Positions 496 to 6,276 of a stretch of 7,097 nucleotides of DNA are shown one piece after another. The stretch lies in IMG/VR virus record IMGVR_UViG_2671180846_000033; one strand, 5' to 3'. The stretch is from a virus. Taxonomy: Duplodnaviria > Heunggongvirae > Uroviricota > Caudoviricetes. Made by a program: the position numbers and the translations under genes. Position 1 is the first letter of the stretch, and the number at the start of each line of letters is the position of its first letter. The notes beneath the pieces were generated by a model. It made no database searches. It saw only the letters and a list, made by a program, of their open reading frames with translations, and was not told the DNA's origin.

Positions 496-1269
496 ATGAC
501 TAAACATATGGACATTCATTGTCAAACACGCATATTTAACTCAATTAACCATGACACCAAATATAAAATATGTATTTTTACTCCAAAAAACATTAAAAAA
601 AATAATGCAACTCTTTATATACTTGATGGGAATAGTGCCAACAATTACATTTCTGATATTCTGCCTGTTATTGATGCACTACCCAATCCACCAGTGTTAG
701 TTACACTTGGTTATGAATCTTGGAATAACCTTAGCATTCATCGCCGTGCTTACGATTATACTCCTGATGGTGAAAATGCTATTGTTGATAACTCTAAACC
801 AGCATGGATCTACTTTACTGGTGGAGGAAGCCAGTCTTTCCGAGAATTATTACTAACTCAGATCATGCCATGGGTTAGTACTATTGCTCCGAACAGTTCC
901 AGAATCGGTATATGGGGGCACTCGCTAGGTGCTATTTTTGTGCTTGATTGCTTAAAAAATAATTCATGCTTTAACTATTATTATATATCTGCACCATCAC
1001 TTCTATGGCAGAATGAAAGAATCATCAAGATAATTAAAGATGATATATCAGAATCAAAGCACACTAAAAGTATATGCTTGCTTAACGGAAATCTTAGCCT
1101 TGATTACTCCGCATCTTTATATCCTGAAGCCATCAAAGCGGAATCTGTTTTGAGAAATATTTTGACAGAAAAATACAGTAATTTTTCTATTGTACAATTT
1201 CCAGAGCTCAATCATCAGGAGACTTTCTCTGCTGCACTCTGGAATAGCATTATTCATTTCAGCATATAA
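496..1269 (+). CDS. Alpha/beta-hydrolase, putative esterase of the IroE/Fes (siderophore esterase / esterase D) type; no recognisable N-terminal signal peptide
   Basis: 257-aa ORF with ATG at 496 preceded by GGGGAG (485-490). Contains a G-H-S-L-G nucleophile elbow (Ser codon 922-924), an LDG motif near the N-terminus, AYDYTP, and a C-terminal ELNHQ histidine. The N-terminus is hydrophilic. The gene sits in visibly AT-rich DNA. Family call is from motif pattern only. Confidence 0.75.
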   Translation: MTKHMDIHCQTRIFNSINHDTKYKICIFTPKNIKKNNATLYILDGNSANNYISDILPVIDALPNPPVLVTLGYESWNNLSIHRRAYDYTPDGENAIVDNSKPAWIYFTGGGSQSFRELLLTQIMPWVSTIAPNSSRIGIWGHSLGAIFVLDCLKNNSCFNYYYISAPSLLWQNERIIKIIKDDISESKHTKSICLLNGNLSLDYSASLYPEAIKAESVLRNILTEKYSNFSIVQFPELNHQETFSAALWNSIIHFSI

Positions 1270-1620: not shown

Positions 1621-2034
1621 CTATTCCATCATTACTCCTGTGTAAAATATCAAAACTCGCTGCATCACTTCACTGTTACGGCACTCACTACAAATTATGT
1701 TCAATTGCCTGTCATAGCGGCGTATTTCTCCGTCTGGTAATGACCAGATAAGGTCAGGATCAACCACAACCGGTTTCTTCAGTTTTGCCCTCGATAGTTT
1801 TTTGCGGGCGTTTTGCCAGTCCTTACGAGCCTGTTCAGATGGGAATAACCCGTAACCAGAGTTGTATACATCGCCACTGGCAACCAGCTCTCTGGCAAGA
1901 ACGCTCATCAGATATCTTGTCGCACCTGTCTTGGCTTCCAGTTGCCGTAACGTCTCGCGCCCACTCCGGCGTACTAGCTCAACAACCTGCCCTTTAATTT
2001 TTTCCCGCTCTTCCTGTGTAAATACTTTTGCCAT
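1621..2034 (-). CDS. Hypothetical phage protein (138 aa) downstream of the P-like gene
   Basis: The ORF track starts at a TTG (2049); an in-frame ATG at 2034 is preceded by GGAGG with 5-nt spacing. The 3' end runs into the AT-rich island. Function not recognised. Confidence 0.55.
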   Translation of the reverse strand: MAKVFTQEEREKIKGQVVELVRRSGRETLRQLEAKTGATRYLMSVLARELVASGDVYNSGYGLFPSEQARKDWQNARKKLSRAKLKKPVVVDPDLIWSLPDGEIRRYDRQLNIICSECRNSEVMQRVLIFYTGVMME

Positions 2035-2049
2035 AAGCGCCTCCGGCAA

Positions 2050-2805
2050 TCACTTTTCCGATACAACACGGCGGGAAGAATCAGTAATCTGTCGAACAAT
2101 ATCCCGGTGCTTGTTCAGCTCCCGCAGCGCGGCGCAGACTCGCTCCCACTTCTGAACATCACTTTTCGCCCTGCGCAGCGCCAGGTTTGCCCTGCGAAGG
2201 GACGGAAAAATCAGCTCATCTGCTTGCGTTTCGGTAAACGATGGCAACGGCTGCACAATGTCCGCCACAGTTTCTGTTTTAATTTCTTCCTGTGTTGCGG
2301 CTTCCCGGACTGGTAACGCAGCACCTGCTGGCTGAGGAAAGGCNNNNNNNNNNNNNNNNNNNNNNNNNNNNNNNNNNNNNNNNNNNNNNNNNNCGGATGC
2401 AGCTTCCGGCTCTGCCGGTAAATCAGCGCCCGGTATGCAGTAACGAAATTTACCGCCCTGATTCACGCGAATCAGACGCCCTTTGCTGATTACCATGGCC
2501 AGCGATGAATTCGCCCGGCGGGAGGTAATCCCGAACATCAGTGCCAGCTCATCCGCCGTTTGTGGGCCATGTTGTTCAATCGCCTCAGTCAGCATTTGCG
2601 CTGTCACTTTCGGTACCGGTGACACCGGTTCACTTTCACCAGCCTGAATCAGCCACCACATCGACCCCTTGTTATCCGCTTCACCGCGGCGCTTCAGTTT
2701 CCACAGTTCGTTGACCGCATCTTCACGGCTGATTCCAAGGCGGGCCGCCACTACCTGTGAAGAGGCTCTTTTCAGTGCTTTCAGTGCGTCAAATACGGTT
2801 TCCAT
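2050..2805 (-). CDS. Hypothetical phage protein with two winged-helix-like segments; interrupted by a 50-N run
   Basis: Track ORF 2050-2823 starts at TTG; in-frame ATG at 2805 is preceded by GGAGG. The protein reads plausibly on both sides of the N-run 2344-2393. No Walker motif seen; function unknown. Confidence 0.6.
2344..2393. other. Run of 50 N (masked or gap sequence) inside a CDS
   Basis: Directly visible in the sequence. Confidence 1.
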
Positions 2806-2838
2806 TAAAATTTCCTCCGACAAAATCGTTTCTCAGAT

Positions 2839-3399
2839 TCAAATAAAACCAGCTGCCTTCCGGCGTTCGTATTCCTGTTTCAGCCGCTCAATTGGCGTTG
2901 GCCCTTGCGGGTGTTTCGCCCCTTCCAGTTGTCGTCGCACTGGCGGAACACTCATCCCGTTACCAACATGCTTTGCCCATTTCGTCAGTTGCCGTTCTGC
3001 AAGTAGTTTTAACTCACCCTGCGTCATCTGGCGCTCAATCCCTCTGGTACGCATTTCGAGGCAGATGTGGTACAGCACAGGCTGTGGCCACGGGTATTTA
3101 TCACTCCCGTCGTATCGCCAGGATTCATTGCGCCAGCGCCGGTACTCTTCCATCACGGCATCCACCGTAAGACCAAATGGATTTGCCCCACTCTCCGAAA
3201 TCAGCGCAACAAACTCAGCCAGGTCCGGGGGCCACGTTTCACCCGCCCGGCAGCGGTCCATGCACTGACGGCAGACCAGACGGATTTGCTGTTCAGTCAT
3301 CGCACCAATCTGGGCAATCCAGAGCTTCGAAGGTGCGGCCCCGTTCTTCTGAGTCCAGCGGTTCGAATACACCTCCCCCATAAGCTCCCACAGCTTCCA
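2839..3399 (-). CDS. Replication protein P-like (lambda P family helicase-loader homologue); 5' end undetermined because of the N-run
   Basis: The translation matches my recollection of the lambda P central and C-terminal regions (MTEQQI, a PPDLAEFVAL segment, DKYPW, a TQGELKLLAERQL segment). The ORF-track start (TTG at 3495) lies in sequence that reads better in the O-like frame. The true start is either ATG at 3381 (GGGAG upstream) or inside the N-run. Confidence 0.65.
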   Translation of the reverse strand, partial: WKLWELMGEVYSNRWTQKNGAAPSKLWIAQIGAMTEQQIRLVCRQCMDRCRAGETWPPDLAEFVALISESGANPFGLTVDAVMEEYRRWRNESWRYDGSDKYPWPQPVLYHICLEMRTRGIERQMTQGELKLLAERQLTKWAKHVGNGMSVPPVRRQLEGAKHPQGPTPIERLKQEYERRKAAGFI

Positions 3400-3449
3400 N
3401 NNNNNNNNNNNNNNNNNNNNNNNNNNNNNNNNNNNNNNNNNNNNNNNNN
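3400..3449. other. Run of 50 N at the O-like/P-like gene junction
   Basis: Directly visible in the sequence. Confidence 1.
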
Positions 3450-4168
3450 GTGAAAACCTTCCCCTCCGCCATCCAGTAATCCCGGAATGCGGCAAGCTCA
3501 GCAGGTGTAAATTCCGGCTCAGGCAGAGCCATACCCCACACTGCTGCCCGTTGTCGAAAATCCGGCGACGGCTGCCAGACAGTAGTCATCGAAAATTTCC
3601 CGATCGGTTCGCTCAGGCCGTCCAGGTATTCAGGTTCGGCTGTCTGCAACGGCGCACCATGCGACTCACTGGTCGGAATACTCTCGCGTTCACGCACGTT
3701 ATGTGTGGGGTTTAATTCTTTTAGATCTGTATCTTTATTAGTTGCTTTTGTGTTTGCGTCATGTTCAAACACAACACCAACATTTGTTTGAACACCTGTT
3801 AAATCTCTCTCTTGTTTTGTTTGAACATATGCTTCCTTTCTGCTTCTTCTGGCCTGAACAGATGCTTTTCCGGCGGCTGATTTTTTGGTCAATTTTTCCC
3901 TGACTGATGCCAGATCTTCCTCAATCCGAAGATGCACCCATTCATCGCTGTTATCGCAAAAAAACTCCCGCAAGGATGGTTCCACATCAGCCCATCGCTC
4001 GTTAGTCAGACGGGAAATTTTTGCCAGCCTGTTTTTAGGTATTGGTTTCCCTGTTTGCCAGTAATTGAACATCAGCAACAAATACGCACCGTGCTCCTCT
4101 GCGGACAAATGCATGGTGTCAGCCAGGTAATCAGCTATGTACAGTTGCATGTATGGTAATGCGGCCAT
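3450..4168 (-). CDS. Replication initiator, DUF1376/YdaU-like (functional analogue of lambda O); 3' end undetermined (in or beyond the N-run)
   Basis: N-terminal segment [32 protein letters not shown] resembles DUF1376 proteins, followed by a low-complexity linker and a C-terminal domain. ATG at 4168 has GAGG 5 nt upstream; the track start at 4222 is a TTG. The frame stays open across the N-run to 3293, but that stretch overlaps convincing P-like coding. Confidence 0.65.
3762..3828. repeat. Iteron-like repeats inside the O-like gene (candidate replication origin)
   Basis: TGTTCAAACA (3762-3771) is the exact reverse complement of TGTTTGAACA, which occurs at 3785-3794 and again at 3818-3827 as part of TTTGTTTGAACA. 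The repeats lie in the AT-rich linker-coding part of the initiator gene. Confidence 0.45.
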
Positions 4169-4254
4169 AATTGCCTCATCTTGTGACGAACCATCCTCTG
4201 GTGATATTCTGTGATTCCCCAATCAACAGAATCAGCAGGGGTCTGGCATAAATA

Positions 4255-4692
4255 TCAATGCACCACAACAGACTCGCCGGATGACCCGCCGTCGCTGAAA
4301 TACGCTTTCCGGTAAACTGCCTGGACTGCATCATCATGCGCATCAATTGCCGTGCTCAACGCTTCCTGGGCCGCCAGTAATGCACGGCGCTCAACAGTGT
4401 CAAAAATACTGAGGTGATAACGCAGTTCACGCGGAAGAACAGTCAGGATAGCTGGAATTAGTGCCTGAATTTTTTCAACAGCATCAGGCGTATCCTTTTC
4501 AAGCCAGCGAAAAATATTTTGTATGTTCAATCCAATACCCTCTGTCGTAGAGGTGTCATGCATTGGTGGATAAGTCATTTCAAGCTCAAAATATGCTGTC
4601 GCTATATCATCAGCGATTTTTTTGCGCCCTACCCTCGGATAAAGCAGCCACGCATTCATCGCCATGCGGATGTGCTCATGCTTGATTTTCAT
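4255..4692 (-). CDS. ydaT: YdaT-like protein (CII functional analogue of YdaS/YdaT-type prophages)
   Basis: 145-aa ORF starting MKIKHEHI with a C-terminal segment LIPAILTVLPRELRYHLSIFDTVERRALLAAQEALSTAIDAHDDAVQAVYRKAYF that I recognise as YdaT-family. Its ATG (4692-4690) overlaps the upstream gene's TGA in an ATGA junction. Confidence 0.75.
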   Translation of the reverse strand: MKIKHEHIRMAMNAWLLYPRVGRKKIADDIATAYFELEMTYPPMHDTSTTEGIGLNIQNIFRWLEKDTPDAVEKIQALIPAILTVLPRELRYHLSIFDTVERRALLAAQEALSTAIDAHDDAVQAVYRKAYFSDGGSSGESVVVH

Positions 4693-4949
4693 GAATCAAC
4701 TCCCGCCGCTGCTTGTGCGTTAGCCTGATACTCAACAGGTAAACCATCGGTTGGATTAGGGTATTTATCAGGGCGCAATTCATGCGGAGTTACTCCCCAG
4801 TCAAGCGCCTCACATGCTGGTATAACCTCCTCCGCTGGCACTCGTTTTTTAAACCACCCACTTATGGTTTGCGGTGTTTTACCAAGACGACGCCCTAATT
4901 CTGATTGGCTCATTATTGACAGGATTTTCACTTGAGTACTTTTTTGCAT
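4689..4949 (-). CDS. ydaS: Cro-like HTH regulator, YdaS-like
   Basis: 86-aa ORF with ATG at 4949 preceded by GGAGGG. HTH segment SQSELGRRLGKTPQTISGW; divergent from the repressor gene. Confidence 0.7.
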   Translation of the reverse strand: MQKSTQVKILSIMSQSELGRRLGKTPQTISGWFKKRVPAEEVIPACEALDWGVTPHELRPDKYPNPTDGLPVEYQANAQAAAGVDS

Positions 4950-5075
4950 GTTTCCCTCCGAACTTTACGATGACACCGATAATTACAAATTTAAATTTAA
5001 ATTTCAACTTCTATTTGTAATGCCACTTATCAATTTTTTCTGTAGGATCGCGGAACTAGTTTACGAGGGGTGGTG
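4950..5075. promoter_or_regulatory. Divergent control region between the Cro-like and CI-like genes (OR-like)
   Basis: ATTACAAAT (4982-4990) and its reverse complement ATTTGTAAT (5013-5021) flank a palindromic (AAATTT)x3 tract (4987-5004). The 14-bp motif AATTACAAATTTAA (4981-4994) recurs at 6223-6236. Ribosome-binding sites for both flanking genes are present. Confidence 0.6.
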
Positions 5076-5468
5076 ATGATCTTTGTAAAACGCCTTCAGC
5101 AGGTGTTGCAGGAATTGAATATAAACCAGTCAGAGCTGGGAAGACGTCTTGGTGTAAAACCCCAATCCGTGCAAGGTTGGTTGAAAGGCGTGATGCCAAG
5201 AATGGATAAACTGGAAAAATTAGCAGAGCTCTCACAACATCCCGTCCATTGGTTCTTTATGGAAGAAGAAACTCTCGGCGATAAAATGGCTGTATCCAGT
5301 AATGACAACCAACCGCAACTTACAGAACAACAACGAAAAATCATATCGCTTTTAGATGAGTTACCTCAAAGCGACGCAGAGCAGATCATTCGTGATATGG
5401 AGCAAAAACGCGATTTCTATAAACGGAAACTTGAAGAGTTACTGCGGCAGAAAAACAAAACTGCCTGA
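5076..5468 (+). CDS. CI-like phage repressor, XRE-family HTH with coiled-coil-like C-terminus and no S24 peptidase domain
   Basis: The track ORF starts at GTG 5070; ATG at 5076 is preceded by GAGGGG (5065-5070). HTH segment NQSELGRRLGVKPQSVQGW; C-terminal 50 aa are charged and heptad-like. About 130 aa, too short for a LexA-type cleavage domain. Confidence 0.8.
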   Translation: MIFVKRLQQVLQELNINQSELGRRLGVKPQSVQGWLKGVMPRMDKLEKLAELSQHPVHWFFMEEETLGDKMAVSSNDNQPQLTEQQRKIISLLDELPQSDAEQIIRDMEQKRDFYKRKLEELLRQKNKTA

Positions 5469-5514: not shown

Positions 5515-5874
5515 TTATAATCCAACCAGGCTTTCCAGGGGGATACCAAATTGATTATGAAGACGGCGAATCATTGGTAACGTAAGGCTTCTGGTACCAT
5601 TCAACACCTCATAAACCCGATTTTTTTTCCCAATTGCGGGTTCCAAATCTTTCACAGTCAGCCCCTGCTGTTCCATGCGAAATCTTATAGCTTCAATTGG
5701 GGATGGTGGCTCAATGGGATAATGTTTTTTTTCATATTCCTCTATTAGCAAACACATCACCTCAAAAAAATCCCCCTCAGGCGTGTCAATTTCGGGCTCA
5801 TTGTCGAACATGGGTTCAACAGCACGCAACGCGGCTTCATAATCTTGCTCTGTACGAATAGGTTTGATGTTCAT
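5515..5874 (-). CDS. higA: HigA-type antitoxin (XRE HTH, type II TA)
   Basis: 119-aa ORF with C-terminal HTH LTVKDLEPAIGKKNRVYEVLNGTRSLTLPMIRRL. Starts 2 nt after the toxin stop, with GGAG upstream. Confidence 0.8.
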   Translation of the reverse strand: MNIKPIRTEQDYEAALRAVEPMFDNEPEIDTPEGDFFEVMCLLIEEYEKKHYPIEPPSPIEAIRFRMEQQGLTVKDLEPAIGKKNRVYEVLNGTRSLTLPMIRRLHNQFGIPLESLVGL

Positions 5875-5876
5875 GC

Positions 5877-6179
5877 TTACTCCAGTTCGATGGTATCAGC
5901 ATCAATAGCATCGTATTCCTTGTGGTTTCCGATGAATTTAACAAATACCCATCCTCGCTGATACGCAATTGCAACAATTAAACGGTAATGATTACCTTTT
6001 ATGTTGAATACCACGCGCCGGTTTTTCAATATACTGGCCGTTCGGTATTGTGCCTTAATGTCTGCTGGGCTTTTCCAGTCAGCTTTTGCCGCCTCATCCA
6101 CCCATGCCCTTAGCGGTTGTTCTGCATCAGGATTCTCCGCCCAAAAATCCCTGAGTGTTTTAACTGAGATAATCTTCAT
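5877..6179 (-). CDS. higB: HigB-type toxin (RelE/ParE superfamily)
   Basis: HigB-like pattern in the translation, including GNHYRLIV and KFIGNHKEYDAID. The track start (6224) is a TTG; the ATG at 6179 gives about 100 aa. Toxin precedes antitoxin, as in HigBA modules. Confidence 0.8.
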   Translation of the reverse strand: MKIISVKTLRDFWAENPDAEQPLRAWVDEAAKADWKSPADIKAQYRTASILKNRRVVFNIKGNHYRLIVAIAYQRGWVFVKFIGNHKEYDAIDADTIELE

Positions 6180-6190
6180 AACTGTATAGT

Positions 6191-6207
6191 AGTCCCATTT
6201 TGGGACT
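6191..6207. promoter_or_regulatory. Perfect 17-bp palindrome AGTCCCATTTTGGGACT just upstream of higB (candidate HigA/HigBA operator)
   Basis: Read directly from the sequence; lies 12-28 nt upstream of the higB ATG on the minus strand. Confidence 0.5.
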
Positions 6208-6222
6208 GATGCAACAGCCCGC

Positions 6223-6276
6223 AATTACAAATTTAATAATAAACATGTTGACCAGTTAAATTTTAATTTGTAAATT
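6223..6276 (+). promoter_or_regulatory. pL-like promoter/operator region for the rightward early operon (OL-like)
   Basis: Second copy of AATTACAAATTTAA (6223-6236); TTGACC (6248-6253), 17-bp spacer, TAAATT (6271-6276); inverted ATTTGTAA (6266-6273) overlaps the -10. Confidence 0.5.

Follow-up and report, generated by a model that had tools for sequence, protein, structure and literature searches.

A candidate origin within an initiator gene

In phage lambda, iterons and an AT-rich tract lie in the middle of gene O and are bound by the O protein, which assembles there into the O-some; lambda and the Shiga toxin-encoding (Stx) phages carry four to six such iterons (PMC7466680). Here we describe a candidate origin of comparable design in a 7,097-nt stretch of viral DNA (IMG/VR record IMGVR_UViG_2671180846_000033; hereafter the window). 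It consists of a repeat array followed by an AT-rich tract at positions 3710-3827, inside the YdaU-like initiator gene of a Rac-type lambdoid prophage of Escherichia coli. The location of an origin within its own initiator gene is already known. What appears to be new is the association with DUF1376/YdaU and apparently Lin1244_N proteins, the 11-bp CGTTSAACG design combined with a microsatellite tract, and the conservation across phyla; no earlier description of such an origin class was found in the literature, as far as it was searched.

The likeness to the lambda origin, and to its Stx-phage and P22-type variants, begins with position: the candidate occupies the linker-coding middle of the initiator gene, between a putatively DNA-binding N-terminal domain (N-domain) and a putatively loader-binding C-terminal domain (C-domain). 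As in lambda, transcription passes the repeats first and then an AT-rich tract, the gene lies downstream of the cro and cII analogues, and its product has a lambda-P-like partner. The initiator, in contrast, is a DUF1376/YdaU protein with a DnaT-like domain, the units are 9-10-bp near-palindromes placed every 11-12 bp, the tract is a (GATACA)n-like microsatellite, and the repeat word is conserved across phyla rather than being phage-specific. Lambda iterons are about 19 bp long; a set of four or more dyad-symmetric iterons of that size is not present here, where three 10-bp near-palindromes are joined by two to three degenerate units.

The theta plasmids pPS10, RK2, F and R6K likewise pair a winged-helix initiator with several phased binding repeats, next to which lies an AT-rich unwinding element. 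Their iterons, direct repeats of 17-22 bp, are found outside the rep coding sequence, and DnaA boxes usually occur with them. Tandem direct repeats of that length are absent from the window; the units are about 11 bp long with a period of 11-12 bp, of mixed orientation and in-gene, with no DnaA box close by. Among the replisome-organizer phages of Gram-positive bacteria, SPP1 (G38P/oriL), TP901-1 and Tuc2009 also carry short repeats and an AT-rich stretch inside the gene of the binding protein, although both the protein families and the repeat sequences are unrelated to those of the window. The Rac prophage of E. coli K-12, finally, is stated to have an active origin, oriJ (PMC3945230). The window is itself of the Rac type and shares 95% identity with K-12 ydaU over the N-domain, array and AT tract; the K-12 initiator is paired with the DnaC-like YdaV, whereas that of the window is paired with a P-like protein.

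Repeat array and AT-rich tract in the window

The element and the gene that holds it comprise the following features, with the coding strand being the minus strand of the window.

3293-4168, minus strand: initiator gene, YdaU-like (Pfam DUF1376 and DnaT), holding the repeats
3740-3827: repeat array, candidate initiator-binding sites; about 90 bp, units phased at 11-12 bp, from an anchored comparison of 38 related loci
3818-3827: exact 10-mer TGTTTGAACA (coding strand TGTTCAAACA); promoter-proximal and least conserved copy
3785-3794: exact 10-mer TGTTTGAACA (coding strand TGTTCAAACA)
3762-3771: exact 10-mer TGTTCAAACA, inverted relative to the other copies and in another codon phase (V-F-E-H)
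3750-3757: degenerate unit GTGTTTGC (coding strand GCAAACAC), in 11-12-bp phase, matching the CAACG unit of other genera
3737-3745: last unit ATTAGTTGC (coding strand GCAACTAAT), bridging the array and the AT tract
3710-3739: AT-rich tract, candidate DNA-unwinding element; 30 bp, GC content 0.28, adjoining the array downstream in the coding direction

The three exact 10-mers, inverted and direct, had been singled out in a sequence-only reading of the window and read exactly as described there. TGTTCAAACA and TGTTTGAACA are mutually reverse complementary and form the near-palindrome TGTTyrAACA; no further exact copy occurs in the 7097-bp window, and one copy with a single mismatch lies elsewhere in it. 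Shuffling rarely reproduced such a set: any 10-mer present three times, reverse complements included, arose in 18 of 5000 dinucleotide shuffles of the AT-rich segment 3690-3870, and for the gene segment 3450-4222 the count was 3 in 2000. Where the earlier reading fell short was in extent, as the three repeats are only the clearest units of the phased array, and the tract proper lies beside them. In coding orientation the array reads GTTCAAACA ... TAACAGGTGTT, CAAACAAATGTT, GGTGTTGTGTT, TGAACATGACG, CAAACACAAAAG and CAACT; at the last unit, CAAC(T/G)AATAAAGA is kept across Enterobacteriaceae, with column identities of 0.8-0.9.

The coding strand of the AT tract is AATAAAGATACAGATCTAAAAGAATTAAAC, with a GATC site at 3724; the (GATACA)n tracts of related loci are its homologues. 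GC content drops to 0.28-0.38 over 3690-3870, compared with about 0.5-0.6 in the flanks, so that the AT-rich mid-gene position given for the repeats was borne out. Within the operon (1621-4949), the least stable 40-mer begins at 3710, with a free energy (dG) of -42.8 against a mean of -55.9 (standard deviation, 4.0). No Rfam family matched the element, and no sigma-70-like site was found in 3450-4300; two overlapping weak terminator-like hairpins lie on the antisense strand, about 5 bp from the tract.

The initiator protein

A Pfam scan of the initiator (E<=0.01) returned only DUF1376/YdaU (residues 5-87, E=1e-25) and a DnaT domain (residues 192-237, window 3458-3595). Its N-domain scored 90.3 bits against the DUF1376 profile (PF07120), for which the curated cut-off is 30.1, and a YdaU/DUF1376 family search collected 545 homologues at E<=1e-5. 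The name 'O-like', given to this minus-strand gene in the sequence-only reading, is thus apt for an analogue of O and not for a homologue; the scan gave no match to Phage_rep_O. RefSeq still labels DUF1376/YdaU as a domain of unknown function, and in other records its name varies between 'primosomal protein I', 'replication protein O' and hypothetical protein. A 50-base run of N covers 3400-3449 in the initiator gene (another covers 2344-2393 in the DUF1627 gene), and because of this mask the C-terminal half of the initiator is only partly analysable from the window.

An AlphaFold model built on 32 homologues (predicted local distance difference test score, pLDDT, 70) comprises a winged-helix N-domain, a long helix up to about residue 123 and a disordered linker at residues 124-156 (window 3701-3799), which agrees with the linker-coding location proposed for the repeats. 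The array and the AT tract together correspond to codons ~114-153, between the DUF1376 and DnaT-like domains. The long helix ends in a conserved basic AGKASxxAR motif. In its longer form, AGKASxxAR(K), the motif covers residues ~98-108 (window ~3845-3877), at the helix end before the repeat-encoded linker; it is conserved at the protein level with varying codons, and is present in both DUF1376 and Lin1244_N proteins (loci L153, L189 and others). The motif region was also the sole segment that hhalign aligned between these two kinds of protein. We do not claim homology of the two N-domains, given an hhalign probability of only 30% over the wing and the AGKASA helix.

Conservation of the element across hosts

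A genome scan with the N-domain yielded 53 loci, from 96% down to 42% identity, in Enterobacteriaceae, Pseudomonas, Propionivibrio, Methylococcaceae, Azotobacter, Frateuria, Bosea and a range of metagenome genomes. Almost all loci have 3-8 CAACGnnCGTT units, located ~330-450 nt into the gene, and the junctions between units yield CGTTCAACG/CGTTGAACG words. An AT-rich tract, such as AATAAAGATACAGATCTAAAAGA or (GATACA)n, directly follows the array. Across 41 non-redundant loci, words of the GTTSAAC type reach 7.8 per kb at gene offset 300-480, compared with 0.41 per kb elsewhere, and their spacings are multiples of 11; in the family as a whole, the self-match at lag 11 reaches 0.49, where about 0.25 is the baseline. 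As an 11-bp period is out of step with the triplet code, each unit is read in another frame than the one before (RST / TVE / PLNE / NSTN), all three frames being used, and the repetition therefore resides in the DNA and not in the peptide. The tract has a GC content of 0.30, compared with 0.53 for the loci, and this holds in hosts with 58-67% GC.

Synonymous codon usage within the element, compared with the rest of the gene, was as follows.

AT tract, Asp GAT: 96%, compared with 40% elsewhere in the gene
AT tract, Thr ACA: 74%, compared with 17% elsewhere in the gene
Array, Thr ACG: 69%, compared with 24% elsewhere in the gene
Array, Ser TCA: 44%, compared with 16% elsewhere in the gene
Array, Arg CGT: 42%, compared with 17% elsewhere in the gene

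Conservation by codon position is flat over the element (0.57/0.57/0.55, at 36% amino-acid identity), whereas the N-domain has the classical coding signature (0.85/0.89/0.53, at 82% amino-acid identity). Within these alignments the comparisons show an element that is conserved as DNA rather than as protein, is non-random and stays with the N-domain.

A nucleotide profile (nhmmer) built without Escherichia or C. braakii sequences had one significant match to the window, covering minus-strand positions 3800-3724 (E=3.6e-4). With this match to a profile from other genera, gene offsets of 342-398 and an AT-rich tract following, the window element belongs with the CGTTSAACG arrays. The word of the E. 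coli clade, GTTCAAAC, is a variant of GTTCAAC with one extra A, C. braakii being intermediate; as judged from the alignments, TGTTCAAACA is a lineage variant of the far more widespread CGTTCAACG unit. Covariation of the flanks around GTTSAAC (C..G vs T..A), with 41 complementary pairs where 33.8 were expected, is too weak to separate dimer-palindrome from direct-repeat recognition.

Within the E. coli clade, the copy at 3785-3794 is invariant in all haplotypes examined, that at 3818-3827 is mutated to TTTTTGAATA in phage Rac-SA53 and some viral contigs, and one haplotype group has TTCGAACA at 3762-3771. Variable positions number 5 of 41 in the repeat cores and 16 of 46 in the spacers (p=0.02). 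A protein-guided scan of viral contigs was useless for such constraint analysis because it returned only relatives of 96-100% identity.

Chimeric relatives mark the limits of the module. The ydaU gene of K-12 Rac and phage 683R6 have the N-domain, all three 10-mers and the AT tract in common with the window at about 95% identity, then switch to a different C-domain right after the tract and have the DnaC-like YdaV as partner. Phage pPE4 displays the converse arrangement: its C-domain and P-like partner are those of the window, its N-domain is unrelated, and at the corresponding site a different 18-nt unit occurs three times and TGTTyrAACA is missing. In viral contigs, at least three C-domain types are joined directly after the tract. 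From these chimeras it follows that the repeats travel with the N-domain and that the tract is a module boundary.

Two of the loci, from E. coli ECMA0423 (L089) and Shigella flexneri (L093), have a ydaU-like gene broken after the third repeat, at gene offset ~400, where unrelated sequence has replaced both the AT tract and the C-domain. Both are decayed remnants of Rac that no longer have the candidate unwinding element. The replication module of pPE4 (L004, vB_Apl-pPE4) is 85% identical in DNA to E. coli Rac-type prophages and has ydaT/dicA-like neighbours, which is surprising for its recorded host, Actinobacillus pleuropneumoniae, and suggests recent transfer or a mis-assigned host.

A separate DUF1376 sub-family (L112, L114, L116, L117, L119, L140) has a T5orf172/MUG113 (GIY-YIG-like) domain after the N-domain and is devoid of the CGTTSAACG array. 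Its genes hold dense CTACG/CCGTAG words, e.g. GAACTACGTAGGAACTACGGTAGTG..TCCGTAGTAGCTACGATAAAGACCGTAGAAAAG, at gene offset ~390-470 (~1890-1970 in each locus), a cluster that may represent a different in-gene origin.

Motif-only search and distant phages

Searching 2.9 million viral contigs for CGTTCAACGNNCGTTSAACG without any protein information gave at least 120 loci. Among the 120 contigs listed, 95 present the context of a DUF1376-type or related initiator gene. In 75 the start of a DUF1376-type N-domain lies 313-422 nt upstream of the motif; in about 20 more, the array falls at residues ~120-230 of open reading frames (ORFs) with Lin1244_N, weak DUF1376 or no detectable N-domain, and is followed by an AT microsatellite such as (AAAGTA)n. 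A further 18 belong to one unrelated family of 146-aa proteins with two motif copies and without an AT tract, a coding coincidence amplified by relatedness, and seven are miscellaneous.

In the 146-aa family (L160, L171, L175, L178 and 14 more contigs; ...KATGAFNERSTCPPCVKKDINTFLESMKD...), CGTTCAACGAGCGTTCAACG occurs at residue ~116 with neither an AT tract nor a DUF1376 gene nearby, making it a false-positive class for motif-only origin searches. Elsewhere, a double motif lies just upstream of an ORF resembling a CRESS-type Rep (...WVWTLNNP...; L156, ~1790-1815), and in L194 and L205 a double motif stands beside a TTGTATTGTATTGTAT tract in AT-rich, apparently intergenic DNA. The element may therefore occur outside initiator genes as well.

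Distant DUF1376 phages, at about 30% identity, retain the same arrangement. Moraxella phage Mcat28 (L144) has CCGTTCAAC three times (offsets 383, 394 and 416), right where a gene for an N-domain alone ends; Ralstonia phage UAM5 has one CCGTTCAAC with flanking CGTT units and then a (GAACCAA)n tract; Komagataeibacter phage phiKX1 has one CCGTTCAAC followed by an AT-rich tract; and a Vibrio phage uses a different word, GACGCAATGC, likewise in 11-bp phase. The Mcat28 gene (1201-1724) stops right after its three CCGTTCAAC and the next gene begins ~90 nt on, which places the element at the gene end and in the intergenic gap, a picture that would result from a split of the initiator at the origin. 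Among small plasmids, no convincing case of replication solely by a DUF1376 gene was found: pSWBY1 encodes a RepM of its own, and the remaining candidates are megaplasmids or phage-like elements.

By these comparisons the repeat word extends over Enterobacteriaceae, Pseudomonas, alphaproteobacteria, Moraxella and probably Bacteroidota-type phages, and the arrays are followed by microsatellites of the (GATACA)n, (GAAGA)n or (AAAGTA)n type. Tentatively, and with the balance leaning slightly to the other side, 11-bp-phased CGTTSAACG units with an AT microsatellite in the linker codons of DUF1376/YdaU and Lin1244_N proteins could constitute a widespread class of phage origin.

A candidate replication origin

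As its position, order, modularity and physical properties match the lambda paradigm, we propose that window 3710-3827 is the replication origin of the Rac-type lambdoid prophage, placed inside the disordered-linker codons of its own initiator; we put the probability of this reading at about 0.75. The sequence-only reading had already named the repeats and the neighbouring AT-rich DNA a candidate origin by analogy with lambda. That proposal gains from the cross-host DNA conservation, the 11-bp phase and the fixed codons, and further from the instability of the tract, the linkage to the N-domain and the outcome of the motif-only scan, all of which are consistent with it.

In the mechanism that we envisage, the winged-helix N-domain, possibly together with the basic AGKASxxAR helix, would bind the 11-12-bp-phased GTTCAAAC/GTTTGAAC units at 3740-3827. 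A phase of 11-12 bp, about one helical turn, would set the units on one face of the DNA, and the bound oligomer could destabilise the adjoining AT tract at 3710-3739. Once the tract has melted, the DnaT-like C-domain would recruit the lambda-P-like loader together with host DnaB. If lambda is a guide, transcription that crosses the site rightward from the ydaS/ydaT promoter could activate the origin.

If the proposal is correct, DUF1376/YdaU would gain a function, that of an origin-binding initiator with an in-gene origin, and its mode of origin recognition would be conserved far beyond that of classical iterons. A DNA element would here dictate a protein linker across phyla, with fixed codons and microsatellite-encoded (TD)n peptides as a dual-coding constraint. 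In prophages and viral metagenome contigs, the motif would also be a cheap means of spotting origins and replication modules. Against dairy phages, a phage-encoded-resistance strategy uses origin fragments to titrate the initiator, and cloned origin fragments of the present kind could do the same.

Several points weigh against an origin at this site. Binding, unwinding and initiation at the element are inferred. The 11-bp unit is unusually short and, over very divergent initiators, unusually conserved; iterons of the classical kind usually change along with their initiator. In the window by itself, the self-match at lags of 11, 12 and 33 is 0.32, 0.36 and 0.42, respectively. This periodicity is weak, the 11-bp phase is a family-level result, and the family sequences are phylogenetically related, so that their counts are not independent events. 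The promoter-proximal copy at 3818-3827 is dispensable in some relatives, including Rac-SA53. No DnaA box was found within 700 bp of the element; the nearest TTATNCACA match (one mismatch) is at 4565, and the total count does not exceed that of shuffles. K-12 Rac, moreover, has been called replication-defective in recent work (PMC11014345), and the 'primers framing oriJ' (De Paepe 2014; PMC3945230, supplementary file 4), the sole pointer to oriJ at sequence level that the literature search yielded, map to NC_000913.3 1422240-1422394 (L142 3241-3395), in the part of ydaV for the Walker-A region and 0.6 kb further downstream than the K-12 array.

Relation to oriJ of K-12 Rac

The K-12 counterpart of the element lies at NC_000913.3 1421511-1421632 inside ydaU, with all three 10-mers at 1421511-1421576. 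On the definition of oriJ at the nucleotide level, the literature search gave only statements that oriJ exists, and the RefSeq record of MG1655 carries no oriJ feature. The amplicon of De Paepe contains neither repeats nor an AT dip; we treat these primers as delimiting a nearby quantitative PCR amplicon and not as a definition of oriJ. Within ydaU-ydaV the array with its tract is the sole origin-like feature, which makes its identity with oriJ plausible. It is thus a plausible but unproven proposal that NC_000913.3 1421511-1421632 is the sequence-level core of oriJ in K-12 Rac. If so, oriJ would be located to ~120 bp, which bears on the disagreement over replication of Rac after excision.

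Alternative explanations

The array and tract might instead be a recombination linker, kept as short homology for swaps of N- and C-domains and playing no part in initiation. The joining of at least three C-domains right after the AT tract in E. coli relatives fits this, as do an indel of an ATCTGT unit and the variable length of (GATACA)n, both being traces of slippage and recombination. A linker, however, needs the junction alone: an 11-bp-phased array of 3-8 units upstream of it and the conservation across phyla would go unexplained, as would the stronger conservation of cores than of spacers. Module exchange is, moreover, also typical of lambda-type in-gene origins and is more likely a consequence of an origin than the function of the site. 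We consider a pure linker improbable.

We regard it as equally doubtful that the units are protein-binding sites with a task other than replication, such as autoregulation or a roadblock by the initiator, operators of another phage regulator or a centromere-like site. Phased short repeats and a winged-helix protein would fit any DNA-binding function, and 11-bp repeats, of which parC of plasmid R1 is built, are typical of some partition sites; the module, however, has no partition genes. As for regulation, the published YdaT operator of the module, ATGATT-N6-AATCAA (PMC11879457, PMC9986795), differs from the repeat word. An operator role was rejected, as the YdaT box lies elsewhere (4682-4699, outside the array) and the repeat word is absent from the repressor/cro intergenic region; there is likewise no promoter-like site in 3450-4300. 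Such binding sites would also leave the invariable adjacent AT tract, the least stable DNA of the operon, with no role. It is the phased array together with the constant low-stability tract, unexplained by either alternative, that makes both less likely than an origin.

The idea that similar words arise by chance from a low-complexity or repeated linker peptide, or from AT-biased codon drift, draws on the disordered polar linker encoded here and on the in-frame copies spaced at 33 bp (VQT...VQT in the window; NDRST...NDRST in Serratia and Moraxella relatives), but appears largely refuted and highly improbable, given a period of 11 with neighbouring units in different frames, a third window copy that is inverted and in another phase, fixed synonymous codons with third positions as conserved as first and second, an AT tract that persists in GC-rich hosts, and shuffles that seldom recreate the repeats.

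The prophage locus and neighbouring genes

The window covers the immunity and replication genes of an E. coli prophage that is lambdoid and of the Rac type. Its DNA matches several E. coli chromosomes at 100% identity and phage Rac-SA53 at 92%, and both this identity and synteny place the initiator gene in the early-right operon (ydaS-ydaT-ydaU...). Its neighbours are as follows.

2839-3300, minus strand: lambda-P-like helicase-loader gene (Pfam Phage_lambda_P, E=3.8e-15 over 2839-3399)
4255-4692, minus strand: ydaT-like gene, cII analogue (Pfam YdaT_toxin; synteny with K-12 Rac)
4689-4949, minus strand: ydaS-like gene, cro analogue (Pfam YdaS_toxin; synteny with K-12 Rac)
5070-5468: helix-turn-helix (HTH) repressor gene, divergent

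The loader gene lies directly downstream of the initiator gene, its start overlapping the initiator stop codon by 8 nt; this start was set by analogy with an annotated 153-aa homologue in L005. Genes for DUF1627 and DUF977 come after it on the minus strand. The ydaS-like and ydaT-like genes stand upstream in the same rightward operon, and transcription from their promoter crosses the candidate origin. A perfect YdaT box, TTGATTTTCATGAATCAA (TTGATT-N6-AATCAA), covers the start codon of the ydaT-like gene at 4682-4699; footprints in K-12 Rac revealed the same arrangement, with YdaT on ATGATT-N6-AATCAA (PMC11879457).

Just past the repressor gene, the immunity region carries a toxin-antitoxin pair as cargo, comprising a HigB toxin gene at 5877-6224 on the minus strand (Pfam HigB_toxin, E=7e-33) beside an HTH antitoxin-like gene at 5515-5874. 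At the other end, 293-1400 is very AT-rich and contains the least stable DNA of the whole window. The block holds a 257-aa ORF (496-1269, plus strand) that has the appearance of a foreign 'moron' gene; its only match, to an esterase, is below threshold (E=0.005).

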